Assembly (NCBI GenBank): GCA_002772995.1
Contig: PFCO01000008.1
Span: forward strand, 23,150 to 87,149
DNA: 64,000 bases
Source: Candidatus Niyogibacteria bacterium CG10_big_fil_rev_8_21_14_0_10_46_36
Lineage (GTDB): Bacteria; Patescibacteriota; Minisyncoccia; 1-14-0-10-42-19
Direction of reading: 5' to 3'
Shown one piece after another: positions 618 to 61,868 of the stretch. The translations under genes and the position numbers were made by a program. Position 1 is the stretch's first letter; every line of letters begins with the position of its first letter. Under the pieces are notes generated by a model. It was not told the origin of the DNA, did not search any database, and saw nothing but the letters and a program-made list of their open reading frames with translations.

Positions 618-890
618 ATGTTGATGAAAAGTGTACTGAGATGGTCTGGGCTTGGTGCGTGGGGGCTTGTGCTTTTCTTGATAAGCGCTATTAGTGTTTC
701 AGTAACATTGCTTGGCATTGCAGGTTTCTTGTTCTTTATAATTGGCATGATCTTGTGGAATTCCTCCGCCACTCTAACAGGTTTAGCATGGATACTATTT
801 TTTTCTGCGGTTTTTCTTTTTGGTGGAGGGGTGATTTTAATTGCCCTGACTGACGAATGGAAATCGTTCAAAGAAGAAATTTTTGGATAA
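618..890 (+). CDS. Small membrane protein, hypothetical (90 aa, 3 predicted TM helices)
   Basis: AGGAGG-type ribosome-binding site (aaaaaggaggg) a few nt upstream of ATG 618; hydrophobic translation. Confidence 0.5.
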   Translation: MLMKSVLRWSGLGAWGLVLFLISAISVSVTLLGIAGFLFFIIGMILWNSSATLTGLAWILFFSAVFLFGGGVILIALTDEWKSFKEEIFG

Positions 891-953
891 TTCAAAAAGC
901 GGAATAGCGTATACACGCATTCCGCTTTTATTTTTTAATAGTATAATGAAAGT

Positions 954-1376
954 ATGAGCTGGGTCATCTATGCAATTTTGTCGGCATTCTTTGCGTCATT
1001 GGTCGCTATCTTTGGAAAGATAGGCGTGCGGGGGATAGATAGCAACCTTATGGTCGCGATACGCACGGTCATTATTGTTGCGTTTGCGTGGGGTATTGTC
1101 TTTGTGCAGGGAAACGCGGCTGATATTTTTAAGATACCAAAATACACTTATACCTTCATCATTCTTTCGGCGATTGCAACCGGACTTTCGTGGCTTTTTT
1201 ATTACAAGGCGCTTCAATTGGGAGAAGCGTCGCGCGTTGCTCCTATTGACAAATTAAGTGTTGCGCTTACTATTATTTTGGCATTCGTTTTTTTGAGCGA
1301 AAAGCCAACGCTCGGCAATGTTTTAGGCGGTTCGCTCGTTGCGGCAGGAGTATTGGTGACAACGCTTATTAAATAA
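954..1376 (+). CDS. Small EamA/DMT-superfamily-like 4-TM transporter
   Basis: 140 aa, four hydrophobic helices. Motif pattern (GKIGVRGIDSNLMVAIRT...LSEKPTLGNVLGGSLVAAGV) resembles a single EamA domain. Confidence 0.55.
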   Translation: MSWVIYAILSAFFASLVAIFGKIGVRGIDSNLMVAIRTVIIVAFAWGIVFVQGNAADIFKIPKYTYTFIILSAIATGLSWLFYYKALQLGEASRVAPIDKLSVALTIILAFVFLSEKPTLGNVLGGSLVAAGVLVTTLIK

Positions 1377-1404
1377 ATTATTATTAGCACTATTTTAACA
1401 GGGT

Positions 1405-1590
1405 ATGAAAATATTTAAAAAACACACATTTGAATGGTGGGAGGTGAGCTTTTTAAAGATTGGGCTTGGGTCTCTCGGTGTTCTTTTGGGTCTGTATTTC
1501 CGGGAAGCGCTCATGAGTGTTATGTGGCTCTGGTGGGCGATTCTGATTGTCACTGTCTTTTATTTTGGCGGGCGCATGCTAAAGGAATAA
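1405..1590 (+). CDS. Hypothetical small membrane protein (61 aa)
   Basis: ORF with two hydrophobic segments in an intergenic gap; no ribosome-binding site identified. Confidence 0.3.
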   Translation: MKIFKKHTFEWWEVSFLKIGLGSLGVLLGLYFREALMSVMWLWWAILIVTVFYFGGRMLKE

Positions 1591-1668
1591 CAGCTCTCGT
1601 ATACTACCCCCGGTGCATCCGGGGATTTTTTATTTGCGTTATTTGTCACATGCGGCATAATAGATTTT

Positions 1669-3141
1669 ATGAAAAAAATACTCATTATCGCGGTTATTAT
1701 TGTGGGCGCTGCCGGGCTTTTCTTTTGGAAGGGTCCGTCTCCAAAAGCGGGATACACCGCGCTTGCCCCTGACACTATTGGCGGGGAAGGCGTGCTCTAT
1801 ACCTACACTATAAAAGGAGAATCAAACGGAGGCGGGGCGCTTTCGTTGTCGTTTACTGACGACGGCAATTATTCATTAATCAATATTGCGCTTGACCTGA
1901 ATGACAGCGGTGCATACGAGGATGACGAGTGGGTAGCTGAAAACCAGATTAGTTATGTCCAGAGAGGTACGGACAACAATTTTGCGGTAGACTTGCCCGA
2001 AGGAGAGCTGCCAAGCACTATTACAGGTATTGCAGCATTTTCGGCGGAACCCATGACAGAAGGCTGGTGGGACGGCGAGAATACGCGTACGATAACTATT
2101 ACTACGGAATCATTTGAATTGAATGATATTTTGGGACTTGATGTCCCGGGCAATGGTCCGGGAGTGTACAGAGGGTATGCCGACGGTTTTTCGGCGCGCA
2201 TGCCTGTCGCGTATGCCCAAACCTTTCCCACGGTGAATGTAGACAGCCAGCTGAATATCGGCGATTTGCGCCAATCAAATATGGAATGCGCGCCGACATC
2301 CATTACGAACAACCTTACCGGGCTTGCGGGCGCGAACGGCAGGAACGATTTGCCTTCAGCAGAGACCATGGTAGACCAGCTCAAATCGGATCTCAAATTT
2401 GGCGATGAAGGCGTTGCGGGTGTTTTGGATAAAAATTACATTGCAGGCAAAAACGCGTTTATGCGAAGATATAATCTTCCTATTGTTACGACCGAAATAT
2501 CAAACCCGTCTATTGAAGATATAGCAAACGCGATACAAAGCGGCGCTGTTGTAGAAATGGATCTTGCGTTTATCGAAGTAACTCCACAAGGGAACAATCA
2601 TGTCGCAAGCCATGTCGTAACGCTTACTGGCGTATCTTCAAACGGCTCGAGTGCTACGCTTCGCGGGCGCGATTCAGCTACACCTACCGGGAACGAGTCA
2701 TGGCAGTTTTTCCCCAAGCGCGCCGGCCAACCGTCTTCTCAAATGCACTACCCCATGTGGAGGAAGGGCGCCACAGTTATAAATAAAATATACATACAGC
2801 GGTATGTATCAGTTGATGATGCGGTTGCGGCAGGTGTGTTGCCGCAGGGCGTTGTGGGGAGCACCTACCCGGTAGACATGCTTGTTATTGGCGGGAAATA
2901 TTATCCCAAAGACCAGTTTACGGTTGGCAACAACCCAGAGGACGCATGCGGAGCGCCGCACTATCACAAACACACAACCGCGTACGGCTTGCAGTCAAAA
3001 ACAAGCATTGCGATAGTGCAGGCAAATGATCCCAATCCAAACTCCTGCGGATTCGGTAAAGTATCTGATGTACCCACCGAAACCGTCCGCTTAACATGGG
3101 AGCAGCAGCAGGCGATTGCCGGCGCTCTTTTAACACCCTAG
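1669..3141 (+). CDS. Hypothetical secreted or membrane-anchored protein (490 aa)
   Basis: N-terminal hydrophobic anchor MKKILIIAVIIVGAAGLFFW. Long ORF with no overlapping alternative; no domain I recognise. Confidence 0.7.
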   Translation: MKKILIIAVIIVGAAGLFFWKGPSPKAGYTALAPDTIGGEGVLYTYTIKGESNGGGALSLSFTDDGNYSLINIALDLNDSGAYEDDEWVAENQISYVQRGTDNNFAVDLPEGELPSTITGIAAFSAEPMTEGWWDGENTRTITITTESFELNDILGLDVPGNGPGVYRGYADGFSARMPVAYAQTFPTVNVDSQLNIGDLRQSNMECAPTSITNNLTGLAGANGRNDLPSAETMVDQLKSDLKFGDEGVAGVLDKNYIAGKNAFMRRYNLPIVTTEISNPSIEDIANAIQSGAVVEMDLAFIEVTPQGNNHVASHVVTLTGVSSNGSSATLRGRDSATPTGNESWQFFPKRAGQPSSQMHYPMWRKGATVINKIYIQRYVSVDDAVAAGVLPQGVVGSTYPVDMLVIGGKYYPKDQFTVGNNPEDACGAPHYHKHTTAYGLQSKTSIAIVQANDPNPNSCGFGKVSDVPTETVRLTWEQQQAIAGALLTP

Positions 3142-3169
3142 CTGCTCACTTGTTTGAGGAAGAATACTT

Positions 3170-3502
3170 ATGTTTAATAGAAGCATGAAAAAACCTACAC
3201 TTATTGCGCACGCATTTTTGCATGCAATTGCGGGCACTCTATATATTGCTGCTGTCGCAACATTTATGAGCCGTGTCGGGCAAATTCTCGGACCGGATAA
3301 GCCGGGTGAGATTTTGGGTCCGGTGGTATTTCTTCTCATGTTTGTGATTTCGGCGGCAATCATGGGTTCTATTGTATTGCTGCGTCCTATCATCTGGTAT
3401 TTAGATGGCAAGAAAAAAGAAGCATTAGGGTTCTTATTATATACCGTTGCATTTTTGATACTTATTGCTCTTACTGCAGTTGCATTAATCGCAATATTTT
3501 AA
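3170..3502 (+). CDS. Hypothetical membrane protein (110 aa)
   Basis: Three hydrophobic helices; ORF follows the upstream gene closely. Confidence 0.5.
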   Translation: MFNRSMKKPTLIAHAFLHAIAGTLYIAAVATFMSRVGQILGPDKPGEILGPVVFLLMFVISAAIMGSIVLLRPIIWYLDGKKKEALGFLLYTVAFLILIALTAVALIAIF

Positions 3503-3570
3503 ATGTATCTTGCAGTGTAAAAAATCCGCCTACACAGAGGCGGATTTTTGCGTTATCATAGAAGGCGATC

Positions 3571-3930
3571 ATGACATCAAAAACAGTTCTTATATTGCAT
3601 AGTATTGTATTCGGCTCGTTTGTGCTGTTTTCGTTAAGTTCGCCCATTTTTGCAGTATGGTATTCGGAATTTTTTTCTTCTTATTTTTTCCCGGCAGCGA
3701 TAGTTCTGACGCCAGTCGTGTTCGGGTTGTGGTATATGTTTCGGGGATGCCCGTTTACCGTATGGGAAAATTATTTTCGTAAGCGCGAGCGCAAACTGCT
3801 CATAGCAAAGAATTCGTGTATTTATCACTATGCGCTTGAGTGGTTCAATGTCCGGATTCCGCTACGGCTCATCCAGCCCGTGCTTGTTTTGCTTTTTATC
3901 ATTCCCATATTTGTGGGGCTTGTGGTATAA
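3571..3930 (+). CDS. Small membrane protein with a G-C-P-[FL]-T motif (possibly DUF2784-like)
   Basis: 119 aa, 3-4 TM segments. The GCPFTVWENYFRKRE motif is reminiscent of the CPLT..E.LR motif of DUF2784; that assignment is from memory and uncertain. Confidence 0.5.
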   Translation: MTSKTVLILHSIVFGSFVLFSLSSPIFAVWYSEFFSSYFFPAAIVLTPVVFGLWYMFRGCPFTVWENYFRKRERKLLIAKNSCIYHYALEWFNVRIPLRLIQPVLVLLFIIPIFVGLVV

Positions 3931-3939
3931 CATAATAGT

Positions 3940-4332
3940 ATGAAAGGATTTATCACCAACATAGAAAAGTTAACGCTTGAGAACACCGATTACCGGCGTG
4001 TCTTGTATACTGCGAAAAACAGCCAGCTGGTGCTTATGAGCCTCAAGCCCGGGGAAGAGATAGGCGAAGAGATACACGAGGAGCATGACCAGTTCATTCG
4101 TTTTGAAAGCGGGACGGCAAAAGTTATTTTGAACAAGACCGAAGAGCATGAAGTGGCGGGGGACGATGCGGTCGTTGTTCCTGCGGGCATGTGGCACAAT
4201 GTCATAAACACTGGAGACGAAGATCTCAAGCTCTACACTATCTATTCACCGCCCGAGCACAAAGACGGCACGCTCCAGCCGACAAAGGCGGACGAAAAAG
4301 AGGAGCATTTTGACGGACAGACGACCGAATAA
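3940..4332 (+). CDS. Cupin-domain protein (cupin_2 conserved barrel)
   Basis: The G-(X)5-H-X-H-(X)3-E...G-(X)5-P-X-G-(X)2-H-(X)3-N pattern (PGEEIGEEIHEEHDQ...VVVPAGMWHNVINTGDEDL) is a typical cupin. Terminator immediately downstream. Confidence 0.8.
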   Translation: MKGFITNIEKLTLENTDYRRVLYTAKNSQLVLMSLKPGEEIGEEIHEEHDQFIRFESGTAKVILNKTEEHEVAGDDAVVVPAGMWHNVINTGDEDLKLYTIYSPPEHKDGTLQPTKADEKEEHFDGQTTE

Positions 4333-4365
4333 ACGGCTCATACGGGGTGTGAGCCGTTTATTTTT
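4327..4365. terminator. Rho-independent bidirectional terminator: 12-bp stem AAACGGCTCATA/TGTGAGCCGTTT, then T-run, preceded by A-run
   Basis: Seen in sequence. Hairpin at 4331-4359 followed by TTTTTGG, preceded by AATAA. A near-identical element occurs at 56080-56114. Confidence 0.8.
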
Positions 4366-4383
4366 GGTATTATAATAAGAACA

Positions 4384-4746
4384 ATGAAAATGCTTACCTG
4401 GACATCGCGGATGCTCGGATTATTTTTTATCGCTTTTGTGAGCGTATTTGCGCTTGATGTATTCGGGCAAGGATATGGCAAGGGCGAATTATTGCTCGCG
4501 CTTTTTGTGCATCTTATTCCGTCGTTCCTGCTTGTCGCGGCGCTTGTTGTTTCATGGCGCAAGCCAGATGTGGGCGGCGCATTTTTTATCGCGCTCGGGG
4601 TGGTTTCTGTTTTCTTTTTTCATACATACAGAGATTTTTTCAGTTTCGGCTTGATTACTCTCCCCGCGCTCATTATCGGTGCTTTGTTTTTATTGCAGTG
4701 CGGGCAGTCGGGGATGACGCTCTTTTTGCAGCATAAGAAAAAATGA
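4384..4746 (+). CDS. Hypothetical membrane protein (120 aa, 4 TM)
   Basis: Hydrophobic ORF. Its end overlaps the start of the TauE gene by 4 nt (ATGA), suggesting translational coupling. Confidence 0.55.
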   Translation: MKMLTWTSRMLGLFFIAFVSVFALDVFGQGYGKGELLLALFVHLIPSFLLVAALVVSWRKPDVGGAFFIALGVVSVFFFHTYRDFFSFGLITLPALIIGALFLLQCGQSGMTLFLQHKKK

Positions 4747-5462
4747 CAGAGATTTCTCTCGTTATCTTTTTAGCAAGCGCGCTTGTAGCCGAGGCCGTGG
4801 GGACAATCGCGGGATTTGGTTCGGGGCTTATGCTTACGCCGATCGCGGCATTCTTCTTTGATATTAAAACGACCATTGCCATCGTAGGCCTTTTTCATTT
4901 TATCGGACAGTTTGTGGACGGTATTATCTGGTGGCGGTATATAAATTGGCGGATAGGGTTATTGTTTTCTGTCGGAGGGATATTATTTTCCTTTGTGGGA
5001 GCCTATCTTATTGCCTATATTCCGGGGCGTGGCCTTGAGATATTGCTCGGCGTTTTTTTAATAGCGTATGCAATTCTCTCGCTTATCGGGAAGGAGGCGC
5101 GCTTACCCCGCTCGGATGGCGCTATAGTAATTACGGGGGGCGTCGTCGGGTTTGTCGCGGGAGTTATCGGTACTGCGGGCGCAATACGGACCGCGGCATT
5201 ATCATCACTTCATTTAAAAAAAGAATATTTTTTAGGGACATCTTTTGCGATAGCGTTTTTCGTGGATATCACGCGTATAGGGGTGTATTTTAAAACAGGT
5301 CTGTTGGAAGTTAATTTCTTTTTATGGGGAGCTGTGCTTGTTGTCGCGGTGCTCGGGAGTTTCGCGGGGAAAGCGCTTGTGTCGCGGATTCCCGCGCCAT
5401 TGTTCAATAAAATTATTTATAGTATTTTGCTTCTTGCCGGCATCCGGTTTTTGTTTTTGTAA
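4743..5462 (+). CDS. Sulfite exporter TauE/SafE family permease
   Basis: 239 aa, about 7-8 TM segments. The repeated G-x-G-x-G-G-L motifs (GTIAGFGSGLMLTPIAAFFF...) are typical of TauE/SafE (DUF81). Confidence 0.8.
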   Translation: MTEISLVIFLASALVAEAVGTIAGFGSGLMLTPIAAFFFDIKTTIAIVGLFHFIGQFVDGIIWWRYINWRIGLLFSVGGILFSFVGAYLIAYIPGRGLEILLGVFLIAYAILSLIGKEARLPRSDGAIVITGGVVGFVAGVIGTAGAIRTAALSSLHLKKEYFLGTSFAIAFFVDITRIGVYFKTGLLEVNFFLWGAVLVVAVLGSFAGKALVSRIPAPLFNKIIYSILLLAGIRFLFL

Positions 5463-5473
5463 AAACGAAATAG

Positions 5474-5500
5474 AAAAAACCCCGCATATGCGGGGTTTTT
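5474..5500. terminator. Rho-independent terminator (CCCCGC-atat-GCGGGG, then TTTTT), bidirectional with an upstream A-run
   Basis: Seen in sequence at 5480-5500. Confidence 0.85.
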
Positions 5501-5512
5501 ATCGTAAAATAA

Positions 5513-5752
5513 TTAGAATGCCTTTTCTGCGTATTTTCCGATGAGGGGCAGGGGGCGGTTGATGTGCTTTACCGCAGAATATGTCCACACTACAAGTTCA
5601 AATATGAGGAACGCGCGGATAGCCCACAGCAAGAGAGGCTGGAGAGAATAGAATCCCCAATACCCCACGAGCGACAATACGCCCTGGAGGGCGAGTGCCG
5701 TTACTACAAGGCCGATAAGCTGTTTTTTCGCGTGCACTGAATGATGGAACAT
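5513..5752 (-). CDS. Hypothetical small 2-TM membrane protein; the ORF could extend to 5848
   Basis: Minus-strand ORF convergent on the TauE terminator. From internal Met 5752 the product is a 79-aa two-helix peptide. Weak support. Confidence 0.3.
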   Translation of the reverse strand: MFHHSVHAKKQLIGLVVTALALQGVLSLVGYWGFYSLQPLLLWAIRAFLIFELVVWTYSAVKHINRPLPLIGKYAEKAF

Positions 5753-5874
5753 GATTGATATGCAGGCGGAATCAATAATAAACGACGGATGCCCGTCCGC
5801 CGGCGGGCATGTGTGTATAAAAACAGCATACCGTATTTTCTTTAGCATTCATAGATTTGATATACTGAACATAT

Positions 5875-6102
5875 ATGTATACATTTTTAAGTTCGGGGGC
5901 AGTTGCCGACTGCCTCAAGACGGTGGGGGACGCGGCGCTTTGCAGCACGCTCCATACCGCGTATCCGCCCTTGTGGTGGGTATCAACCACATTCGGTACT
6001 ATCGTATTTAGCCTATTCTTTCTTACCTGGGCGCTGGTACTCGTAAATCTTGGCTTACTTATGTTCTTTTTGGTGCATAAGCTCTTCGGGAAAAAGAAAT
6101 AA
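5875..6102 (+). CDS. Hypothetical small membrane protein (75 aa)
   Basis: ORF ending 46 nt before the arginine kinase gene. TTGATA box 14 nt upstream of ATG; C-terminal TM helix. Weak support. Confidence 0.3.
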   Translation: MYTFLSSGAVADCLKTVGDAALCSTLHTAYPPLWWVSTTFGTIVFSLFFLTWALVLVNLGLLMFFLVHKLFGKKK

Positions 6103-6225
6103 ACGCGACAATATATATAAATAGGAGGTTTTATAAGACCTTATTTTTTGTTTTTGTCAAGGTTACCATGTGAGCATATTTGGGTATACTGCGTTATAGA
6201 TTTAGTTCACATAAAAGGAGGCTAT

Positions 6226-7269
6226 ATGACACACCAAGACATCCTTTCCGCGTTACGCGGCAGTTCGTCTCTTCTTGCAAAGCATTTAGAGCCGGAATTA
6301 TTAGATTCACTGGAAGGCGCACGCACAAGCCGTGGTTTTGCGATTGCTGATGTTATCCGTTCCGGGGTTGAAAACACCGATAGCGGAGTGGGGGTATACA
6401 TCCCTGACGAAGAATCCCTTGAGACCTTTGGTCCATTTTTAAAAAAGATAATTACGGCATACCATGGGTTTGGCGAGGGCGATTCGCATAGACGTGATTT
6501 TGCGGTTGCCGAAGATGAACTAAAAGATTTGGATCCGACGGGCGAGTTTATTATTTCTACGCGGGTTCGTGTCGGGCGGAATCTCAAAGGGTATCCCTTT
6601 GCGCCGGGCATCACTCAGGAAGAGCGGAAAGAGGTTGAACAAAAGATAGTCTCAGCACTCGGTACATTAACGGATGATCTTGCGGGCATGTATTATCCGC
6701 TTGCGGGGATGAAAGAAGATATACGCGCGCAGTTAGTCGCCGACCACTTTTTATTCAAGCAGGGCGACCGCTTTTTGGAGAGTGCCGGTGCAAACCGCGA
6801 CTGGCCTGATGCTCGGGGTATTTTTCATTCCGCAGACAAGAAGTTCTTGGTATGGGTGAACGAAGAAGACCAGCTGCGCATCATCTCTATGGAACAGGGC
6901 GGCAATCTTCACTCGGTGTACAACCGCTTGGTGCGCGCATTCACGGCGCTCGAGAAGAAGCTGGACTTTGCCTATTCCGAGAGATACGGATTCCTTTCAA
7001 GCTGTCCTACGAATTTAGGAACCGCAATGCGTGCAAGCGTGCATATTAAGCTTGCGGGGCTTGAGAAAAGCGGAAAGCTCAAAGAAGCATGCGATGCGCT
7101 TAAGCTTTCGGTGCGCGGGATACACGGAGAACATTCCGAAAGTGCAGGCGGCGTATATGATATTTCAAACAAGCAGCGGCTCGGCATTTCGGAAGCAGAC
7201 ATCATCCGGGTGCTTGCGAACGGCGTTCGTAATCTTATAGCGCTTGAGAAAAGCCACCTGAAAAAATAG
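6226..7269 (+). CDS. Arginine kinase (ATP:guanidino phosphotransferase), eukaryote-type, with N-terminal specificity domain
   Basis: Ribosome-binding site aaaaggagg 5 nt upstream of ATG 6226. Translation carries the phosphagen-kinase signature CPTNLGT, FLVWVNEEDQLRIISME, STRVRVGRNLKGYPF, and an N-terminal SGVENTDSGVGVY substrate-specificity loop. McsB-type protein-arginine kinases lack this N-terminal domain. Confidence 0.9.
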   Translation: MTHQDILSALRGSSSLLAKHLEPELLDSLEGARTSRGFAIADVIRSGVENTDSGVGVYIPDEESLETFGPFLKKIITAYHGFGEGDSHRRDFAVAEDELKDLDPTGEFIISTRVRVGRNLKGYPFAPGITQEERKEVEQKIVSALGTLTDDLAGMYYPLAGMKEDIRAQLVADHFLFKQGDRFLESAGANRDWPDARGIFHSADKKFLVWVNEEDQLRIISMEQGGNLHSVYNRLVRAFTALEKKLDFAYSERYGFLSSCPTNLGTAMRASVHIKLAGLEKSGKLKEACDALKLSVRGIHGEHSESAGGVYDISNKQRLGISEADIIRVLANGVRNLIALEKSHLKK

Positions 7270-7346
7270 CTATTCTATCTGTGCATAAACCGGGCATCCG
7301 CCCGGTTTTGTTTTTATATGTGGTGCTGTATGATGGGTATGCTTAT

Positions 7347-7694
7347 ATGTTCAGCCAATTGATTGCACAGATACACGCGGGTATCACCCCTGATGTTATG
7401 GGATGGTTTGTTACCGCAATCACCATTACATACTCTGTTATTGGTCTTCCTGCGCAAATCTATAAAAATTGGAAGCGCAAATCACTCGAAGGATTTTCAA
7501 ACATATTGTGCGTGTTGGTGTTTTTTACATTTTGGGGGTGGTTTTTGTACGGCATTATTCAGAGTGATAACTATATTATTATTGCAAACGCTCCGGGTGC
7601 CGTTGCGGTAACCGTTTTATTGTTCCAGATGTTTTTATACCGGAAAAATCCGGTACGGATTTCTGCAGGCACGTCTGCAAAAAATACTCTATGA
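7347..7694 (+). CDS. SemiSWEET/PQ-loop family 3-TM sugar transporter-like protein
   Basis: About 115 aa with three TM helices. LPAQIYKNWKRKSLEGFS matches the PQ-loop motif of bacterial SemiSWEETs. Start chosen at in-frame ATG 7347; the upstream in-frame part of the track ORF is not hydrophobic. Confidence 0.6.
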   Translation: MFSQLIAQIHAGITPDVMGWFVTAITITYSVIGLPAQIYKNWKRKSLEGFSNILCVLVFFTFWGWFLYGIIQSDNYIIIANAPGAVAVTVLLFQMFLYRKNPVRISAGTSAKNTL

Positions 7695-13680: not shown

Positions 13681-14295
13681 ATGCGCGAAACCCGCACAGG
13701 ATTTGGAACGGTCATTCTGATAGTTTTTGCGGCGATTATTCTTTTGGGTGGCGGCGCATACATTGTTTTAGAGAAGAACACCGCTACTGATCGCGGCAGC
13801 GAGGAGCGTATGGATACCGAAAAAGATACGGGCATGACGGAGGAAGAAGCACCGAAAAAAGATGATAAAGATAATACCGCGAGCAAGGATTCAATGGATG
13901 GCGCAGACACAGAGACATCTTTTAGCAGCGTGGTGCTTGCGGGGTCGGAGTCACTGCTCCTTGATTTTTCAAAAATGGATTACGAAAAAGCTCTTTCCTC
14001 AAAAAAGATAGTAGTGCTTTACTTTTATGCGAACTGGTGCCCGATATGTAAGGCGGAATTTCCGAAGATGCAATCGGCGTTCAACGGGTTTTCAGATGCA
14101 GATATTATCGGTTTCCGTGTGAACTTTAACGATAACGAAACCGACCAATACGAAAAAGACCTTGCGCGCCAGTTCGGTGTTGCCTATCAGCATACGAAAG
14201 TCATCTTGAAAAATGGAGAGCGGGTACTCAAATCTCCTGAGTCATGGGAAGAGAACCGCTACATATCCGAAATTAATGCCATAGCAGTGAATTAA
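13681..14295 (+). CDS. Membrane-anchored thioredoxin-fold thiol:disulfide oxidoreductase (TlpA/ResA-like)
   Basis: N-terminal TM helix; VVLYFYANWCPICKAEFPK carries a CxxC (CPIC) motif in a thioredoxin-like context. Confidence 0.8.
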   Translation: MRETRTGFGTVILIVFAAIILLGGGAYIVLEKNTATDRGSEERMDTEKDTGMTEEEAPKKDDKDNTASKDSMDGADTETSFSSVVLAGSESLLLDFSKMDYEKALSSKKIVVLYFYANWCPICKAEFPKMQSAFNGFSDADIIGFRVNFNDNETDQYEKDLARQFGVAYQHTKVILKNGERVLKSPESWEENRYISEINAIAVN

Positions 14296-14297
14296 TT

Positions 14298-15002
14298 ATG
14301 CTTGATGTGTCGTTCATCGTCGCTTTTTTAGCAGGGTTGGTATCGTTTTTATCTCCCTGTGTGCTCCCGATAGTCCCGGGCTTTTTGGCGTATCTTTCAG
14401 GAACATCTACTTCGGAATCCGCAAGCCGGCTCCGTATCTTTTTGAACAGCTTTGTGTTTGTTCTCGGATTTTCGGTCGTATTTGCCCTGTTGGGTGTGCT
14501 CCTGAACACGCTTTTAGAATCGGTTGCGTATGATGTTCAGATATGGCTCGCGAGGATTGGCGGTGCGATCATTATCTTTTTTGGGTTGTATCTTGCTGGG
14601 CTCTTTCATATCCCGTTCTTAGAACAGCAGCATAAATTCGCCGTAAAAAAGAAATTCGCAAATTCATACATCACCTCATTTTTATTCGGCGCTGCGTTTG
14701 CTGCCGGGTGGACTCCATGCGTGGGTGCAGCGCTTGGCGCTATTCTTGGACTGGCGGCCACCGCTCCCGGGAAAGCATTTTATCTCTTGTTTATGTATTC
14801 ATTAGGGCTTGGCGTTCCGTTTCTGATCGTGGGGCTTTTTGTTTCCCGCGCAGAGGCTTATATCAACCGGTATGCAGGAGCACTTTCGTATGTAAGCAAG
14901 GCATTCGGCATCATTCTGATCGTTCTCGGAGTGCTTGTTTTTACCCAGAGCTTGAATTTGATAGCAAATTTCGGTTTTCTTAATAACTTGTTGCTGCAGT
15001 GA
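14298..15002 (+). CDS. ccdA: Cytochrome c-type biogenesis / thiol-reductant transfer membrane protein CcdA (DsbD transmembrane-core family)
   Basis: LSPCVLPIVPGF and GWTPCVGAALGA are the two conserved Cys motifs of CcdA/DsbD-beta. Six TM helices. Confidence 0.85.
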   Translation: MLDVSFIVAFLAGLVSFLSPCVLPIVPGFLAYLSGTSTSESASRLRIFLNSFVFVLGFSVVFALLGVLLNTLLESVAYDVQIWLARIGGAIIIFFGLYLAGLFHIPFLEQQHKFAVKKKFANSYITSFLFGAAFAAGWTPCVGAALGAILGLAATAPGKAFYLLFMYSLGLGVPFLIVGLFVSRAEAYINRYAGALSYVSKAFGIILIVLGVLVFTQSLNLIANFGFLNNLLLQ

Positions 15003-16132
15003 TGACTGTATCAAAACAAACAATCTTTTCTGTTGTAGTACTGGTGCTTGTTGTGGGTGCGATAGTGTATCTTGAATCACGGAAAGCGGACATCCCGTCA
15101 TTATTGGGGAACCAAGATGTAACTATCTTGAACGAAGGAGAGCGCGTTGCCGAAAAAGAAAAAAAATTTGAACCGGCAAAAGAAATATCAACGCCGGACG
15201 GATTTATCAATACCGATGGTGTTACGATAAGCGAGCTTATCGGTAAAAAAATCATCTTGGTTGATTTTTGGACATATTCCTGTATCAATTGCCAGCGCAC
15301 TACCCCGTATTTAAATTCATGGTATGAAAAATATGCGGACGACGGGCTGGTTATTTTGGGTCTTCACACGCCCGAGTTTGAATTTGAGAAAGATTATGAC
15401 AACGTGGCTCGTGCGGTGGAGAAATTTGGCATTGAATATCCGGTTGTATTAGATAACGACTATTCTACATGGCGATCGTATGAGAACCGGTATTGGCCAC
15501 GCAAATACTTGATAGATATAGATGGCTTTATTGTGTATGACCACATTGGTGAAGGAGCGTACGAAGAAACGGAACAGAAGATAGTAGAATTGTTAAATGA
15601 ACGGAGCGCCGTATTAGGAGAAGATGCGGTTACGCTGGACGAAAAAAACCCGGAGTATATCCAGGATGTTGAGTTTGATAAGGTGCAGTCTCCCGAAATG
15701 TATTTTGGGTACGACCGTTTGCAATATATTGGAAATACATTTTTACGCTCATGTTTGGATTCGGTTTGCGATTTTGATGCAAAAACAGATATTCAGCGAA
15801 ATACATTTAATTTAGATGGCTCGTGGCAGATAGGGCCGGAGGATACGGTGCTCAAGAACGGCGAGGGTGCAATCATACTCGGGTTTTCTGCGTCAAAAGT
15901 AAATCTTGTTGCCGGGACTGACGGTGGCGAGATAGAAGCAGAGATATATCTTGATGGAGAGCGGGTTGATGCGGCATACAAGGGCGCGGATGTTGATGAA
16001 AATGGTGTTGTGCGGTTCGGCGCACATGACCTGTATAATCTGATAGATTTGCATGGAGACTACGGCGAGCATGTCCTCTGGATAATGATAAAGCAGCCCG
16101 GACTCCAGGCATTTGCGTTTACGTTCGGGTAA
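14999..16132 (+). CDS. Membrane-anchored thioredoxin-like protein (CINC active site) with an extra C-terminal beta-rich domain; DipZ C-terminal-like
   Basis: N-terminal TM helix; WTYSCINCQRTTPYL CxxC motif; YWPRKYLIDIDGFIV is redoxin-like. A C-terminal domain of about 150 aa resembles the carbohydrate-binding-like domain found after the thioredoxin domain in mycobacterial DipZ (recognition from memory). Overlaps the ccdA stop by 4 nt. Confidence 0.75.
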   Translation: MMTVSKQTIFSVVVLVLVVGAIVYLESRKADIPSLLGNQDVTILNEGERVAEKEKKFEPAKEISTPDGFINTDGVTISELIGKKIILVDFWTYSCINCQRTTPYLNSWYEKYADDGLVILGLHTPEFEFEKDYDNVARAVEKFGIEYPVVLDNDYSTWRSYENRYWPRKYLIDIDGFIVYDHIGEGAYEETEQKIVELLNERSAVLGEDAVTLDEKNPEYIQDVEFDKVQSPEMYFGYDRLQYIGNTFLRSCLDSVCDFDAKTDIQRNTFNLDGSWQIGPEDTVLKNGEGAIILGFSASKVNLVAGTDGGEIEAEIYLDGERVDAAYKGADVDENGVVRFGAHDLYNLIDLHGDYGEHVLWIMIKQPGLQAFAFTFG

Positions 16133-16153
16133 TATGCAAAATGTATAAATAAC

Positions 16154-16179
16154 AAAAATACCGCCTATGCGGTATTTTT
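16154..16179 (+). terminator. Rho-independent terminator (ATACCGC-ctat-GCGGTAT, then TTTTT)
   Basis: Seen in sequence between the thioredoxin-like gene and msrA. Confidence 0.8.
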
Positions 16180-16193
16180 GTTATGATGACGAT

Positions 16194-16736
16194 ATGAATA
16201 AAAAAGTAATTGTTTTTGGCGGAGGCTGTTTTTGGTGCACCGAAGCCGTGTTCAAAATGCTTAAGGGTGTTCTTTCTGTAACCCCGGGTTATGCGGGCGG
16301 TACGACAAAAGACCCTTCCTATGAAGACGTATCAGCGCATAAAACAGGACATGCCGAAGTCGTGCGCATTGAATATGATGCTGATATCATGCCGCTCCAT
16401 GATTTGTTAACGGTATTTTTTGCAACGCATGACCCGACAACGCCCAACCGCCAGGGAAATGATGTCGGTGAACAGTATCGCTCCATTATTTTGTACACGG
16501 ACGAAGAGCAAAAAAAAGAAGCGGAAGCGTTTATCGAAAAATTAAACGGATCAATGGAGGAAGGCGAGCCAATAATAACCGCAATACAGCCGCTTGATGC
16601 GTTTTATGAAGCAGAAGATTATCACAAAGATTATTTTGAGAAAAATCCGCAAAATCCCTATTGTCAAATAGTTATCAACCCCAAGCTCGACAAGGTCCAA
16701 AAGGAATTTGCAGAGCTGGTAAAAGAAAATGAATAG
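16194..16736 (+). CDS. msrA: Peptide methionine sulfoxide reductase MsrA
   Basis: GGGCFWCTEAVF active-site motif, GYAGG, HAEVVRIEYD. ATG 16194 is chosen because the longer track ORF overlaps the terminator hairpin. No signal peptide. Confidence 0.9.
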   Translation: MNKKVIVFGGGCFWCTEAVFKMLKGVLSVTPGYAGGTTKDPSYEDVSAHKTGHAEVVRIEYDADIMPLHDLLTVFFATHDPTTPNRQGNDVGEQYRSIILYTDEEQKKEAEAFIEKLNGSMEEGEPIITAIQPLDAFYEAEDYHKDYFEKNPQNPYCQIVINPKLDKVQKEFAELVKENE

Positions 16737-17274
16737 TATGCACGAACACACTCATGGGCAGGAACACGCGGGACATGTGGATACGTCAGCGATTCGCCGT
16801 TCATTCCGCGATTTTATTCCCCTTGTGGTTATTTTTGGGGTTATTGCTCTTTTCACGATTATGCAAAGCATGCGAGCGGGTGCGTGGGAGACCGCGTATC
16901 TTATGCGCAATTTTATGGGAGCATTTTTTATCGTATTCGGAGGATTTAAAATCATACGATGGAAGGGCTTTGTGGATGCATACCAGATATACGACATTGT
17001 CGCAAAACGAAGTAGGGTGTATGGGTATACATACCCCATAATAGAGTTAGGGCTTGGGTTTTCGTATCTTTTTTCGTTCCAACTTGCTCTTGTTCAAGTA
17101 ATAACAATAGCAATCATGTGCATCGGGGCTATTGGAGTAGGGCAGGAGCTAGTGAAAAAGAACACCATCCCATGTGCTTGTCTTGGTGTGGTGTTTAAAA
17201 TACCTATGACCAAAGTAACGTTTTTTGAAGACATTCTCATGGCGGCAATGGCTGCGGGGATGTTTTTTGTGTAA
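16729..17274 (+). CDS. MauE/DoxX-like redox-associated membrane protein with His-rich N-terminus
   Basis: Four TM helices and a conserved-looking PCACLG Cys pair near the C-terminus. The N-terminal MHEHTHGQEHAGH is His-rich. Family assignment is by resemblance only. Confidence 0.55.
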   Translation: MNSMHEHTHGQEHAGHVDTSAIRRSFRDFIPLVVIFGVIALFTIMQSMRAGAWETAYLMRNFMGAFFIVFGGFKIIRWKGFVDAYQIYDIVAKRSRVYGYTYPIIELGLGFSYLFSFQLALVQVITIAIMCIGAIGVGQELVKKNTIPCACLGVVFKIPMTKVTFFEDILMAAMAAGMFFV

Positions 17275-26562: not shown

Positions 26563-27363
26563 ATGAAAACATATCGAATGCTCGCAATTTTTCTTGCGTT
26601 TATCGGGCTCGGTATTATGATTTACCTGTCTTATTTGCATTACGCCAACACGCAGTCGTTTTGTGATTTTTCTGAAGAGGTATCGTGCGATGTGGTAACT
26701 ACAAGTTTGTATTCCGAGGTATTTGGCGTTCCCATATCCCTTTTGGGGGCAGGATTTTTTGGCGTATTGTTGCTTTTGCTCTTTTTGAACAAGAAAGATG
26801 ATGTATTCCAGGCGGTATTTTTCCTAACGCTTTTAATGCTTGTTCCCTCTTTGTACTTTACACTTCTTGAAGCTACTGTGATTGGAGCATTTTGCGTGTT
26901 ATGCGAATCGTCAAAGGCGGTTATGGGTGCAATTCTTGTAGTTTCATTTTTGGCAGTACGAAAGGTTGCCCCCTTTCCATATAAGCAAATTATCCCAATT
27001 GTTATCGGCGGTCTTCTTGTTATTGGGGTCATATTTTTTGCGCAAGCAGGAGGCGGCACTAAGGAGGATTATTCCGAATTATTTTTATGTGCGAATGATA
27101 ATGGAATAACATACTATAAGTCAGTTAGGTGCAGTAGCTGCAGACAACAGGAAAAAGTATTTGGACCCGCATACACAACATTGCGTGCGATTGAGTGTCA
27201 TCCGGAAGGAGATAATCCGCAACCCGAGCTTTGTCTAGAGAAAGAAATATCAAAAACCCCGACATTTATTCTTGAGAGGGACGGGCAAGAAGTAAAACGA
27301 GTTATCGGCATCCAGCAAATTGATGCATTTGCCGAGTTCGCGGAGTGTTCTATTGATAAGTAA
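26563..27363 (+). CDS. Vitamin K epoxide reductase (VKOR) homologue fused to a C-terminal thioredoxin-like domain
   Basis: VKOR loop Cys pair SFCDFSEEVSCD and TM CxxC (FCVLCES). The C-terminal soluble domain carries CSSC in a thioredoxin-like context (YYKSVRCSSCRQQEKVFGPAY...TPTFILE). Confidence 0.8.
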   Translation: MKTYRMLAIFLAFIGLGIMIYLSYLHYANTQSFCDFSEEVSCDVVTTSLYSEVFGVPISLLGAGFFGVLLLLLFLNKKDDVFQAVFFLTLLMLVPSLYFTLLEATVIGAFCVLCESSKAVMGAILVVSFLAVRKVAPFPYKQIIPIVIGGLLVIGVIFFAQAGGGTKEDYSELFLCANDNGITYYKSVRCSSCRQQEKVFGPAYTTLRAIECHPEGDNPQPELCLEKEISKTPTFILERDGQEVKRVIGIQQIDAFAEFAECSIDK

Positions 27364-37183: not shown

Positions 37184-40100
37184 ATGACCGAGTGGAGTTC
37201 AATAATTCCTCGTTTATTGAAGGTAATAATGTCGATATCGTACCGGGATGATTTGTTGGACGCGATACGGAACGATGCGGCGCTCAATTCCGCATTACAG
37301 GCAACTCCGTATGTAGCGTTTTTAAGCAAGCTGAATGCAGAGGAAAGAAAAGGATCTGACATAGGCAAGCAGTGGGCGAGCCTACCCAAGCGGGAGCCAA
37401 AAAAGGCAAAAAAGAAAGCAAGGCTATCGTCCGAAGCAGCAGCACTTGAAAAACGCATCAAATTAGAACTCGCTCAGTTTGTCCATAGTGGAAATATAAA
37501 AAGCGAGGACGATGTAGATGCGTTATACGAACAGATTCGGTCTTCCTTTGGGAAAGACATCAAGATAACGCAGTATCGTTTCGGAAAAAGGAAGTATAAA
37601 TCGCTCATCGATGATCTTTTATGGACGGGCGGGAAAGACGGAACATTTACGGCGCTGAAAGAGATAGTCCGCAAGGATCTCCCTATTGAAAAGTTTTCCG
37701 AATATCATCCGCATATTCCTGTTTCATTGGTAGAAAAAAAGAAGCAGGAAATCTCTGGAGTGACGCAGACATCGCTTCCGGTGAAGCTATTGCCAGGAGT
37801 GGGGAGACTGACTGACGACATCCGCCATGCAGATGCCAATTTCAGCTTTCCCGGTAATTCGTATCATGAGCCGTTTGTGATATCGGGAGGAAAATCAGAT
37901 TTTTCCTTTATCGTTATCAATGGCCCTCAGGTCGGCATGCAGTATAGCAAGGTTATTGCAGAGAATCCTGTTCGCTGTGCGCTTGCGCAGGCGGAACGGG
38001 ACAAGTGCGATGCGGTGCTTCTTACGGGAACTATCGATGTGGATACGAAAAAGGCTGCGGGCCCCACAAAAGCGCTTCGCGCGCTCTTTTCGGGGAGAAA
38101 TACGAATGTAGACATGTTAAATCCCATCTACCAGAAAGAGGCAAAGAGCATTTTAAGTGAGGCGATGGGGCGAGATATCGTCTATGAAACGACTGCGGAA
38201 ATCTTCTCCAACCTGTTAAGCGGATGGAGAAAGATAACTATTCAGCCCGATGAGCAGCCAGAATTTAACGGTGATGTGTTTATCGTATTCGGTCCGAAAG
38301 AAGAAGAGATTATCTTGGCAGGTGCGTATTGGGAACTGCATTACAATACCATGCGCAAGATTGATCTTATCTTGGCGGAGATTAGCGTTGCCCGCAGCGG
38401 TCTTGCACGTGCGAAAAAAAACGGCAATACCCGGGAAGAACGTAAGTTGGAAAACAAACTTCTCGAACTTCAGGATCTGCGTACGCGTACGCGTATGACA
38501 AATGTGAGCGTTGAAGACTGGAAAAAGATGTACCGTAAGATGCTTGCGTTTGTTGTCCGCAGCTTTGAACAGACAATTCCGAACGCAAAAGTTATCAATA
38601 AAGGGACGACCTATCTGAAGGTAAATGGGTCAGTGTTTGAGATGCATATCCCGAGCACGCTCCAGGTAACTGACGCACTGCTTTCAAAATTCGTAGGGTC
38701 GTATGCACATGCGACATTGCGAAAGAGCTTTGCTGACACTGTTGTGATATGCCATCCGTATGCGATAAACCACCGGGTAACAGCGCGCGAAATAGATGCT
38801 GAGGGCAAACGCCGTTCGGCAGAGATTCATGTAGCGCCTATCTGTGTTGACGGTGTGATATTGCGCGACCGGATAAAGACCATAACAAAGAGTGTTCACG
38901 CAATACAGCGGGCAGTGTTCCATCCGTTGTTCAACCCCGGGGTGCTGAAGTTCCGTTGCGCCAAGGGGCTCATCACGACAAGCATGTTCGGTATTGATGC
39001 GCTTCGCAAGCATCTTCGTATTCTTTCCGGCGCGGAAAGCAAAACCAAAATAGCAGATAAATATATTTATCTGTTTGTGGGGACTGATCCGCACTGGGGG
39101 AGCAGAAGCAAAGAATTTATCTGGTGCGACGAAAGGCGCGAGTATCTCGGCATGACCGAATGCGCGTTTCATCTGCTCCGGAAATACCGCAATATGAAAT
39201 CTTTGGGTGTTCACATGTTCGTTTCTAATGACGACATTACCCAGGGACATCATTTCCCTTCGCAAAAACAGCCGCACCAAAACCAGATGCCGTATGACTT
39301 CTTTGAAAAGAAATGGGGTGAGGCGATTGCTGAGGCTGAAAAAGTAGCGGAGAATAACGATCCGAAAGCGTTGTTCAAATTGCTTCGGGATATGAGAGAT
39401 CTTTCGCTAGACCAGATTCGCGTGCGCGGTATTGATTGGGTGCGTGACCAGCTTGAAGAGGTCCTATACCGCCACCTAAAACCGAATGTCGATATATTTG
39501 ACGGCATTCTTTCATCGGGAACGCGCGCAGGGCTTATAGTGAAAGGCGCGTCTCATTATCTGCAGACGCAGTTTGACCGGAGGGATATTGGTCTCATTAA
39601 TTTCGGCGACGGAAACCATTTTTCAAAGACGACAGACAGGAATCTTATGGAAAATACCATCGTTGCGCAGTACCTGCGGCTCCTGCTGGGTCAGATGAAA
39701 AAATGGGAAAAAGAAAAAGATCTTCTCGATGCCCTTGTCCGCGATCCGATACACGGCAATCAGTTTATCGGCTGGGGAACGGTAGAAGCGCCTGGCGGAT
39801 ATGTATGGGCGTTCGATCTCCGGAGCTCTCCTACGGGACTGGGAATTGATTGGAATGATCCGTTCCTGAAAATGTCACGCAATGACATGAAGCGCGGAAA
39901 CTTTACGCGGTTTTTTGAGAACAAGTATACGGTCAAGGTGGTAGGTGATAAGCATTTCTACACGACACAATGCACCGCTCAGGCACTGTATCTCATGGGA
40001 CCGCCGGGGACATCTACGGATGTATACGGTGAGCTTGGTTTTCCGCCGAATAATACGGGAATTCTTTTTGTAGGACTTCCGGCGGAAGGTCCTGATGCCG

Positions 40101-40201
40101 GGCCAATTCTTTTCCGGCCGCTCCTGTATGATCGTCTGCGCGAATATATAGAAGAGAAAAAACCATTTGATTGGGATTCATTCCTCCCCAATCCGTTATA
40201 A
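37184..40201 (+). CDS. Large orphan cytoplasmic protein (1005 aa); Lys-rich N-terminal region; C-terminal half carries degenerate metallophosphoesterase-like motifs
   Basis: Uninterrupted 3018-nt ORF with a strong ribosome-binding site, its own promoter and a terminator at 40233-40261. No TM or signal sequence. Candidate motifs are LFVGTDPHWG (D-x-H), SNDDITQGHH (GD-x-x-D-x-G-like) and FGDGNHF (GNH). Confidence 0.85.
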   Translation: MTEWSSIIPRLLKVIMSISYRDDLLDAIRNDAALNSALQATPYVAFLSKLNAEERKGSDIGKQWASLPKREPKKAKKKARLSSEAAALEKRIKLELAQFVHSGNIKSEDDVDALYEQIRSSFGKDIKITQYRFGKRKYKSLIDDLLWTGGKDGTFTALKEIVRKDLPIEKFSEYHPHIPVSLVEKKKQEISGVTQTSLPVKLLPGVGRLTDDIRHADANFSFPGNSYHEPFVISGGKSDFSFIVINGPQVGMQYSKVIAENPVRCALAQAERDKCDAVLLTGTIDVDTKKAAGPTKALRALFSGRNTNVDMLNPIYQKEAKSILSEAMGRDIVYETTAEIFSNLLSGWRKITIQPDEQPEFNGDVFIVFGPKEEEIILAGAYWELHYNTMRKIDLILAEISVARSGLARAKKNGNTREERKLENKLLELQDLRTRTRMTNVSVEDWKKMYRKMLAFVVRSFEQTIPNAKVINKGTTYLKVNGSVFEMHIPSTLQVTDALLSKFVGSYAHATLRKSFADTVVICHPYAINHRVTAREIDAEGKRRSAEIHVAPICVDGVILRDRIKTITKSVHAIQRAVFHPLFNPGVLKFRCAKGLITTSMFGIDALRKHLRILSGAESKTKIADKYIYLFVGTDPHWGSRSKEFIWCDERREYLGMTECAFHLLRKYRNMKSLGVHMFVSNDDITQGHHFPSQKQPHQNQMPYDFFEKKWGEAIAEAEKVAENNDPKALFKLLRDMRDLSLDQIRVRGIDWVRDQLEEVLYRHLKPNVDIFDGILSSGTRAGLIVKGASHYLQTQFDRRDIGLINFGDGNHFSKTTDRNLMENTIVAQYLRLLLGQMKKWEKEKDLLDALVRDPIHGNQFIGWGTVEAPGGYVWAFDLRSSPTGLGIDWNDPFLKMSRNDMKRGNFTRFFENKYTVKVVGDKHFYTTQCTAQALYLMGPPGTSTDVYGELGFPPNNTGILFVGLPAEGPDAGPILFRPLLYDRLREYIEEKKPFDWDSFLPNPL

Positions 40202-55409: not shown

Positions 55410-55439
55410 AATAAACAGTTGCTTTGATAGGGGTGAGGA

Positions 55440-56042: not shown

Positions 56043-56071
56043 ATAAAAAGCCCTGTGAAAGGGGCTTTTTT
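56043..56071 (+). terminator. Rho-independent terminator (AGCCC-tgtgaaag-GGGCT, then TTTTTT)
   Basis: Seen in sequence. Confidence 0.8.
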
Positions 56072-56075
56072 ATGG

Positions 56076-56114
56076 AAATAAACGGCTCACACCCCCGTGT
56101 GAGCCGTTTATTTG
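56076..56114. terminator. Second terminator, palindromic element AAACGGCTCACA-cccccg-TGTGAGCCGTTT, flanked by A-run and T-run; a copy of the element at 4331
   Basis: Seen in sequence; near-identical stem to 4331-4359 in inverted orientation. Confidence 0.8.
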
Positions 56115-56270
56115 GAAGCTTCGGCGCCTTATTTTATAGGGCGTAAAGGTATTGAATCAATGATTCTCTAATTATTAAAAAATAAGTCTATATTTTGTCA
56201 AAAATATATGCTTTTTTTATTTAAAAATAAGGCATTTTTATACTTATCCACAGTTTATGCAGAGAATTTA

Positions 56271-61135: not shown

Positions 61136-61161
61136 ACTTGAAAAATTTGATTTTGTCTAGA

Positions 61162-61192: not shown

Positions 61193-61193
61193 T

Positions 61194-61802: not shown

Positions 61803-61824
61803 ATATGTGATGGCTGTTCAAGTA

Positions 61825-61856: not shown

Positions 61857-61868
61857 ACTATGTATGTG

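Follow-up and report, generated by a model that had tools for sequence, protein, structure and literature searches.

A predicted Limulus-type arginine kinase encoded in the genome of a Niyogibacteria bacterium

We analyzed a 64,000-nucleotide stretch of DNA (here, the window) from contig PFCO01000008.1 of the metagenome-assembled genome (MAG) of Candidatus Niyogibacteria bacterium CG10_big_fil_rev_8_21_14_0_10_46_36, an ultra-small groundwater organism that is placed in the Parcubacteria group of the Patescibacteria, or candidate phyla radiation (CPR), as Ca. Niyogiibacteriota. One gene in the window encodes a protein that agrees at every residue (100% identity) with the NCBI entry "MAG: arginine kinase" of this bacterium and is already correctly named there. 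Our best explanation, to which we assign a probability of roughly 85%, is that the protein is a classical arginine kinase (AK) of the Limulus type that would act as an ATP buffer, that the immediate source of its gene was a bacterium and not a eukaryote directly, and that the gene is native, long resident, and vertically maintained in the Niyogibacteria genome.

In the reversible reaction of AKs, ATP passes its gamma-phosphate to L-arginine at the guanidino nitrogen, and the phosphoarginine formed in this way re-forms ATP from ADP on demand. Animal muscle and some protists are the textbook settings of phosphagen systems. Bacterial examples have been described only from a few Proteobacteria and Campylobacterota and from Oceanithermus, and their origin is debated. 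The gene reported here shows that a complete, selectively maintained AK is also found in Patescibacteria, organisms with minimal energy metabolism, which makes AK a candidate ATP buffer for some ultra-small bacteria and adds a bacterial lineage to the data on phosphagen kinase origins.

Domain architecture and functional residues

The protein contains both domains of a phosphagen kinase, with Pfam matches that are far beyond chance (positions in Table 1). The N-terminal small domain aligns with profile positions 3 to 66 of 67 in PF02807 (E 2.1e-19; 70.2 bits against a cutoff of 25.7 bits), and the C-terminal catalytic domain aligns with positions 1 to 202 of 203 in PF00217 (E 4.6e-75). An earlier reading of the window, made from the sequence only, had quoted the motifs CPTNLGT, SGVENTDSGVGVY, and FLVWVNEEDQLRIISME, and all three are present exactly as quoted.

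We then compared the protein with Limulus AK, using the residue numbering of 1m15. All 21 functional positions that we examined are identical in the two enzymes. Twenty of the mapped identities are D62, S63, G64, V65, Y68, R126, G128, R129, R193, E225, D226, R229, C271, T273, R280, H284, R309, E314, H315, and D324. The alignment also pairs Limulus R330 with R318 and Limulus Y89 with Y79; both residues are identical in the Niyogibacteria protein and invariant among the 22 relatives aligned with it. Thus, all tested nucleotide-binding arginines (R126, which corresponds to R115 here, R229, R280, R309, and R330) and the catalytic residues E225 and E314 are kept. Just 3' of the CPTNLGT motif lie R269 (Limulus R280) and H273 (Limulus H284).

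Within the guanidino-specificity loop, D52, S53, G54, V55, and Y58 correspond to Limulus D62, S63, G64, V65, and Y68. In the alignment, the loop has the same short, AK-type length as in Limulus AK, with no insertion or deletion. Judged by the Limulus AK structures, these loop residues and Y89 would determine specificity for arginine.

Predicted structure and distinction from McsB

An AlphaFold2 model built with the alignment of 22 relatives has a mean predicted local distance difference test (pLDDT) score of 89.3 and a predicted template modeling (pTM) score of 0.86. The N-terminal domain is modeled as helical at residues 16 to 20, 23 to 28, 40 to 49, 63 to 67, and 69 to 80. The only stretches of low pLDDT, at about residues 171 to 190 and 301 to 310 (mean 63 in the latter), can be explained by their correspondence to the two mobile loops that close over the substrates. 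When the model was searched against the PDB with Foldseek, all 30 of the 30 best matches were AKs. The top match was 1bg0, the transition-state complex of Limulus AK, with a template modeling score (TMq) of 0.92 and a root mean square deviation of 2.0 Å.

Sequence matches to PDB entries point the same way. AKs match at E values of 1e-101 to 1e-114, with the Anthopleura two-domain AK and Limulus AK as the best (1m15, E 2.5e-113), while creatine, glycocyamine, and lombricine kinases match at about 1e-70 to 1e-76. The confident model predicts an arginine-type phosphagen kinase with the two-domain AK fold. Limulus polyphemus AK (1bg0/1m15) is 54% identical to the protein over 333 residues; it differs in being a eukaryotic (chelicerate) muscle enzyme, and the Niyogibacteria protein has an N terminus 10 residues shorter and lacks two single-residue insertions.

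The sequence-only reading had also proposed that this is a true phosphagen-type AK rather than McsB, the bacterial protein-arginine kinase, and the domain content, model scores, and PDB matches uphold that proposal. All five NCBIfam models for McsB or protein-arginine kinase score far below their cutoffs; the best, NF002194, reaches 161 bits against a cutoff of 385, NF053707 reaches 146 against 500, and the matches span only residues 100 to 343. McsB chains in the PDB likewise match only the C-terminal domain (E about 1e-25). McsB of Bacillus and Staphylococcus shares a homologous PF00217 domain with the protein (about 30% identity over residues 100 to 343); however, it lacks PF02807, has a C-terminal domain of its own, phosphorylates proteins, and has McsA, ClpC, and CtsR as partners. 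A scan of about 60 open reading frames (ORFs) in the window gave no match to the Clp, McsA, or CtsR families. We therefore rejected McsB as the identity of the protein, given its PF02807 domain and the low scores of the McsB models. The sequence-only reading had named two results that would overturn it, grouping with McsB and an N-terminal domain that does not align with those of phosphagen kinases; we checked for both and observed neither.

Residence in a bacterial genome

The gene has the signals and surroundings of a bacterial gene, as the sequence-only reading had stated. The Shine-Dalgarno sequence that it had quoted (aaaaggagg) is present upstream of the ATG, and bacterial-type genes lie near AK on both sides, encoding cupin, DUF7670, TauE, SemiSWEET/PQ-loop, and PAP2 proteins. 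Farther away, the window encodes Ddl, UppP, MltG, LeuRS, MnmA, FtsH, GlmS, Aat, and Fur, together with a MacB-type exporter, DsbD, VKOR, and MsrA proteins, and a VirD4-like ATPase.

The composition of the gene agrees with that of the window. Its GC content of 0.49 corresponds to the 89th percentile of the 64 ORFs in the window and is inside their range, and in synonymous codon usage it is one of the most typical genes, ranking at the 17th percentile of distance for window genes of at least 200 amino acids. The AK DNA and both of its junctions are found in five independent assemblies (JGI 3300004210, JGI 3300004209, ENA ERZ27293400, ENA ERZ27293414, and Logan SRR6240789), with 0 to 1 mismatch over 2.6 to 9 kb. 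The claim that the gene is not assembly contamination is thus borne out by the concordant assemblies and by the host-like codon usage.

We compared the gene with eight homologs. The proportion of synonymous differences (pS) was 0.76 to 0.95, which is saturated, and the proportion of nonsynonymous differences (pN) was 0.19 to 0.34. Because saturation at synonymous sites means that dN/dS cannot be computed, we report pS and pN. These values show strong purifying selection and long separation, even from the closest relative. The intact frame, the full set of catalytic residues, and purifying selection also led us to reject the reading of this gene as a pseudogene.

Relatives and their distribution

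We searched one genome per bacterial or archaeal species (185,579 species-representative genomes) for relatives of the protein, using peptide patterns and tblastn. Because the scan requires the peptide DHFLFK[QKE]G or SCPTNLGTA, the 401 loci that it returned are a lower bound. At least 401 loci or species genomes, or about 0.2% of those searched, therefore encode AK relatives, in keeping with the earlier statement that such enzymes are rare in bacteria. The phyla with relatives are Patescibacteria, Campylobacterota, Pseudomonadota, Myxococcota, Desulfobacterota, Deinococcota, Bacteroidota, and Bdellovibrionota.

We assigned taxonomy and counted CPR members among the best 80 of the 401 loci. 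The closest of these loci are from CPR MAGs (Paceibacterota, Saccharibacteria, Brennerbacteria, and Kaiserbacteria), at 55 to 63% identity. These are followed by many loci of Campylobacterota (Sulfurovum, Sulfurimonas, Nitratifractor, Hydrogenimonas, and Arcobacter), and others are from Moritella PE36, Thermaceae, Nannocystis, Desulfuromusa/Geobacteraceae, Bacteriovoracaceae, Moraxellaceae, and Saprospiraceae. Metagenome proteins are up to 72% identical to the Niyogibacteria AK, and the contigs of these relatives carry bacterial housekeeping genes (such as prfB, ftsEX, and pyrG).

Searches of phage records with tblastn and a scan of IMG/VR gave no AK-type relative, and plasmid matches were to McsB with one exception, so these searches identified no transfer vector. 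The exception is a "hypothetical protein" encoded at 55290-56192 (+) on plasmid NZ_CP110821.1 of Candidatus Bandiella woodruffii, a Rickettsiales endosymbiont of the ciliate Euplotes. This protein is 41% identical over residues 34 to 337 of the AK (E 2e-67). It looks like a homolog of the phosphagen kinase type rather than McsB, since the match begins within the region of the N-terminal domain, and the plasmid gene was possibly acquired from the ciliate host.

Three further observations concern individual relatives. AKs of a locus labeled Saccharibacteria (L001, 5989-6999) and of one labeled Paceibacterota (L002, 851-1861) fall in one cluster at 90% identity (P0046/P0121), which means either that a taxonomic label is wrong or that the gene passed between CPR lineages very recently. 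The Kaiserbacteria MAG CG10_..._49_17 (L052), from the same Crystal Geyser CG10 sample as our contig, has an AK of the same clade at 58% identity. A further AK of this clade, at 66% identity (P0022, locus L087), is encoded in ENA ERZ27293414, an assembly that also holds the Niyogibacteria contig.

Phylogeny

We built a neighbor-joining (NJ) tree from 191 sequences, using 339 columns, and bootstrapped it 100 times. The tree was rooted with human creatine kinase CKB (100% identical to 3b6r), and its eukaryotic references were taken from the PDB alignments; the set excludes named ciliate and sponge AKs as well as the exact sequences of published bacterial AKs. The Niyogibacteria AK pairs with the protein P0003 (bootstrap 99) and falls in a 7-member subclade (bootstrap 97) within a 71-member clade (bootstrap 81). 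This larger clade contains every CPR locus together with loci from Bacteriovoracaceae, Moraxellaceae, and one gammaproteobacterial MAG. Its sister is a 68-member clade of Campylobacterota, Moritella, Thermaceae, and others (bootstrap 72), and the two join in a cluster of 139 members (bootstrap 57). Anthopleura AK groups with this cluster at a bootstrap of 48, and the addition of the Limulus, mollusc, annelid, and flatworm kinases gives a node with a bootstrap of 66.

The mean identity of the protein is 0.61 within its own clade, compared with 0.52 for the sister clade, 0.49 for metazoan AKs and taurocyamine kinases, and 0.43 for CKB. Individual metazoan AKs are 43 to 55% identical to the protein, compared to 55 to 72% for its nearest bacterial, mostly CPR, relatives. 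Because these nearest relatives are bacterial AKs within a clade with a bootstrap of 81, we conclude that the immediate source of the gene was probably bacterial. The interpretation in the sequence-only reading is thus upheld in part. As for its statement that such genes are generally seen as horizontal acquisitions from eukaryotes, the bacterial clade argues against a direct transfer here, and an ancient transfer from eukaryotes to bacteria would fit the creatine kinase-rooted NJ tree, in which the relevant nodes are weakly supported (48 to 66).

Four metagenome proteins of about 500 amino acids nest inside the 68-member sister clade. One of them, P0083, is encoded on a 6.4-kb JGI metagenome contig (L083) in a head-to-tail array of four or five phosphagen kinase domain units at positions 818-6187. 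The gene calls in the array are a 335-aa protein, an N-terminal domain only, a C-terminal domain only, a 375-aa protein, and a 495-aa protein with the domain order C-N-C. The array looks like a multidomain, probably intron-containing eukaryotic AK, and the final unit of the array falls within the bacterial clade of Campylobacterota type. The 139-member cluster is therefore not described here as purely prokaryotic.

Proposed function

ATP buffering would be plausible in an ultra-small CPR bacterium, a kind of organism that is generally reported to depend on substrate-level phosphorylation and arginine import; we expect the same of this host. The protein would be a cytoplasmic single-chain AK (EC 2.7.3.3) catalyzing the reversible reaction of ATP and L-arginine to ADP and N-phospho-L-arginine. 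Arginine would be held by the loop residues D52, S53, G54, V55, and Y58 together with Y79, and the phosphates of the nucleotide by R115, R218, R269, R297, and R318. The guanidinium group would be positioned by E214 and E302, and C260 lies in the CPTNLGT motif. Two mobile loops, at about residues 171 to 190 and 297 to 306, would shut over the substrates. Most likely, the resulting pool of phosphoarginine would buffer ATP/ADP when the supply of energy is intermittent.

This role leans on analogy with characterized bacterial AKs. As summarized in PMC11492440, enzyme activity has been shown for the AKs of Desulfotalea and Sulfurovum (Andrews 2008; Suzuki 2013), and the AK of Myxococcus is needed to make fruiting bodies and spores (Bragg 2012). 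More speculatively, and we regard this as doubtful, the CPR-dominated clade may be an old, separately evolving lineage of phosphagen kinases that enables a minority of host-dependent, ultra-small Patescibacteria to store energy as phosphoarginine, perhaps as a means of surviving phases without a host or short of energy. If this were true, the depth of the clade and the breadth of the distribution (at least 401 species genomes in about eight phyla) could shift the debate between a bacterial origin and import from eukaryotes.

Comparison with described bacterial arginine kinases

Bacterial AKs have been characterized since 2008 (PMC11492440). One group, called cluster A by Suzuki et al. (2013), is described in PMC11492440 as containing the AKs of Sulfurovum lithotrophicum, Sulfurovum sp. 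NBC37-1, Nitratifractor, Moritella sp. PE36, and Oceanithermus, and is reported there to include ciliates and a sponge. The eukaryotic-looking proteins inside our sister clade agree with this report. As in the Niyogibacteria AK, cluster A AKs are single chains of about 340 amino acids with two domains; they share its catalytic and specificity residues and occur sporadically in bacterial hosts. MAG loci of cluster A genera are 51 to 57% identical to it and form the sister clade; in contrast, the Niyogibacteria AK belongs to the separate, mainly CPR/Patescibacteria clade of 71 members. Its apparent position outside, and sister to, the clade of Sulfurovum-, Nitratifractor-, Moritella-, and Oceanithermus-type genera comes from the NJ tree, in which MAG loci stand in for the published references.

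The AKs of Desulfotalea psychrophila (Andrews 2008) and Myxococcus xanthus (Bragg 2012) are assigned in PMC11492440 to Suzuki's "cluster B/B'". Like the Niyogibacteria AK, they are true phosphagen-type AKs in bacteria, with activity shown for the former and a physiological role for the latter. Unlike cluster A, they are reported in the same source to group with invertebrate AKs. Our tree covers loci of Nannocystis and Desulfuromusa, not the exact Desulfotalea and Myxococcus sequences, and those loci fall in the 68-member sister clade.

In the literature that could be searched, we found no mention of an AK in CPR/Patescibacteria or of a distinct CPR-dominated AK clade. What is new here is therefore the presence of AK in CPR bacteria and in a CPR-dominated clade of its own, while the type of enzyme and its mechanism are already known. 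We consider the gene a sound and somewhat notable metabolic feature that would not be unexpected to a specialist in phosphagen kinases.

Evidence against this reading and alternative explanations

Several observations weigh against the interpretation of the gene as a bacterial-derived, long-resident AK that buffers ATP. Across the CPR-dominated clade, the enzyme assignment is made from sequence. The nearest stand-ins for characterized enzymes, the Sulfurovum/Campylobacterota MAG loci, are only about 51 to 57% identical to the protein, and the comparison excludes the exact sequences of Sulfurovum lithotrophicum and Desulfotalea. We found no arginine transporter, no arginine deiminase pathway or arginine catabolism, and no ATP-generating module in the 64-kb window. 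No gene consistently adjoins AK across 16 related loci, so genomic context gives no support to the function of AK. About a dozen CPR species genomes have an AK among the best 80 of the 401 loci, indicating that AK is not a general CPR trait. Finally, the NJ tree is distance based, its deep nodes have bootstraps of 48 to 66, and named ciliate and sponge AKs were left out.

The alternative that best survives, which we nonetheless consider unlikely, is that bacterial AKs, including those of the CPR-dominated clade, are an ancient bacterial lineage not derived from eukaryotes, and that bacteria may even have been the source of the eukaryotic enzyme. The spread of relatives across about eight phyla is in its favor, as are the two deep bacterial clades, which are well supported at bootstraps of 81 and 72, and the internal divergence of the CPR clade (mean identity 0.62). 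The question is still debated (PMC6429109). However, AK occurs in a very patchy distribution covering about 0.2% of species, the creatine kinase-rooted tree places the bacterial cluster within eukaryotic AKs (with weak support, 48 to 66), and the probable eukaryotic multidomain sequences inside the sister clade imply exchange between the domains of life.

We think it very unlikely that the enzyme acts on a guanidino substrate other than free L-arginine or, in the manner of McsB, on arginine residues in proteins. Phosphagen kinases have changed substrate repeatedly, a taurocyamine kinase of Schistosoma is 43 to 47% identical to the protein, and the case for arginine use within its clade is built on sequence comparison. 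That same Schistosoma enzyme deviates from AKs in exactly the specificity loop, whereas in the Niyogibacteria protein all arginine-contacting residues and the AK-type loop length match those of Limulus AK. For McsB-like action in particular, the N-terminal domain is present, the McsB models score far below cutoff, and no mcsA, clpC, or ctsR gene was seen in the window.

A direct and recent acquisition from a eukaryote is slightly less credible still. Transfer from eukaryotes to bacteria is one of the debated origins of bacterial AKs (PMC6429109, PMC11492440), the bacterial cluster nests among eukaryotic AKs in the creatine kinase-rooted NJ tree, and the identities of Limulus AK (54%) and Anthopleura AK (52%) to the protein nearly equal those of non-CPR bacterial AKs (mean 52%). 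These similarities have to be set against nearest relatives that are bacterial, mostly CPR, at 55 to 72% identity with a bootstrap of 81, a 71-member clade without any eukaryotic sequence, fully host-like codon usage, and synonymous sites that are saturated even in comparison with the closest homolog.

The high similarity to metazoan AKs could also raise the suspicion of assembly contamination or of eukaryotic DNA chimerically joined to a bacterial contig, but this is effectively excluded by the identical sequence with both flanks in five independent assemblies, by codon usage and GC content in agreement with the window, by the bacterial neighbors, by the presence of a Shine-Dalgarno sequence and a terminator and the absence of introns, and by homologs in bacterial contexts in other CPR MAGs.

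Gene features and neighboring genes

The coordinates of the gene, its domains, and its flanking signals are given in Table 1. The longest ORF call for the locus begins upstream, at TTG 6148. We place the start at ATG 6226 because this position fits the N termini of homologs and the Shine-Dalgarno sequence; the frame is intact up to the stop codon at 7267-7269 (+). Promoter-like sites are no more numerous in the AK region than in shuffled sequence, and the site in Table 1 is for this reason a mere candidate. The terminator-like hairpin suggests that AK forms its own transcription unit. Scans of the window for tRNAs and Rfam families gave no matches, so we detected no RNA element or integration-site tRNA near AK.

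Table 1. Positions in the window of the AK gene, its encoded domains and motifs, and its flanking signals
Feature	Position	Strand	Remarks
Candidate promoter-like site TTACCA-16-TATACT	6163..6190	+	Consensus scan; weak evidence
Shine-Dalgarno sequence AAAAGGAGG	6213..6221	+	4 nt upstream of the ATG; read from the sequence
AK coding sequence	6226..7269	+	347 aa plus stop; ORF translation, Pfam, PDB matches, NCBI identity
N-terminal alpha-helical small domain, aa 13-76	6262..6453	+	PF02807; no counterpart in McsB
Guanidino-specificity loop SGVENTDSGVGVY, aa 46-58	6361..6399	+	Motif position and Limulus residue mapping
C-terminal catalytic domain, aa 136-343	6631..7254	+	PF00217
FLVWVNEEDQLRIISME segment, aa 207-223	6844..6894	+	Holds catalytic E214 (Limulus E225) and R218 (R229)
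CPTNLGT active-site motif, aa 260-266	7003..7023	+	Reactive Cys260 corresponds to Limulus C271
Flexible substrate-closing loop, aa 297-306	7114..7143	+	Holds R297 (Limulus R309) and E302 (E314)
Intrinsic-terminator-like hairpin	7287..7318	+	9-bp stem with 6 G-C pairs, then T-run; 18 nt past the AK stop

Directly 3' of AK, at 7281-7694 (+), lies a gene for a SemiSWEET/PQ-loop membrane protein (PF03083, 4e-11; PF04193). The GTG start of its longest ORF, at 7281, overlaps the AK terminator hairpin, and gene calls in other assemblies begin at 7323 or 7347. Because arginine is among the cationic amino acids that some PQ-loop proteins of eukaryotes transport, a link between this protein and AK is conceivable; however, the two genes are not consistently adjacent across the 16 related loci.

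Only two kinds of neighbor recur among those 16 loci, which belong to the CPR clade. One is a P-type (E1-E2) ATPase, encoded within 6 kb of AK in 5 of the 16 (L004, L006, L008, L016, and L081), in varied positions and orientations. Such an arrangement would set an ATP-consuming pump beside an ATP buffer, but the recurrence is probably due to chance. The other is an ABC ATPase, encoded near AK in 4 of the 16.

Other features of the window

The region at 13681-17274, together with 26563-27363, encodes a cluster for thiol-disulfide exchange and oxidative repair (thioredoxin-like, DsbD_TM, Thioredoxin_10/AhpC-TSA, MsrA, and MauE-like proteins), and a VKOR homolog is encoded farther on. This extracytoplasmic redox toolkit seemed large for a small genome. 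Two long ORFs, at 37184-40201 (+) (1,005 aa) and 1669-3141 (+) (490 aa), have typical codon usage and zero Pfam matches. At 48544-50967 (+), the window encodes an 807-aa VirD4/TrwB-like type IV secretion coupling ATPase, adjoining a 185-aa ORF without a Pfam match; secretion systems of this type are reported from Patescibacteria.

Most of the ORFs in the window (50 of 64) are on the + strand, and as far as about 60 kb the GC skew is positive, between +0.03 and +0.19. Beyond that point, it falls to approximately 0 and then to -0.04, and genes turn to the - strand (59970-63770). This change near position 60000 could be a replication-related strand switch or an effect of the coding strand.

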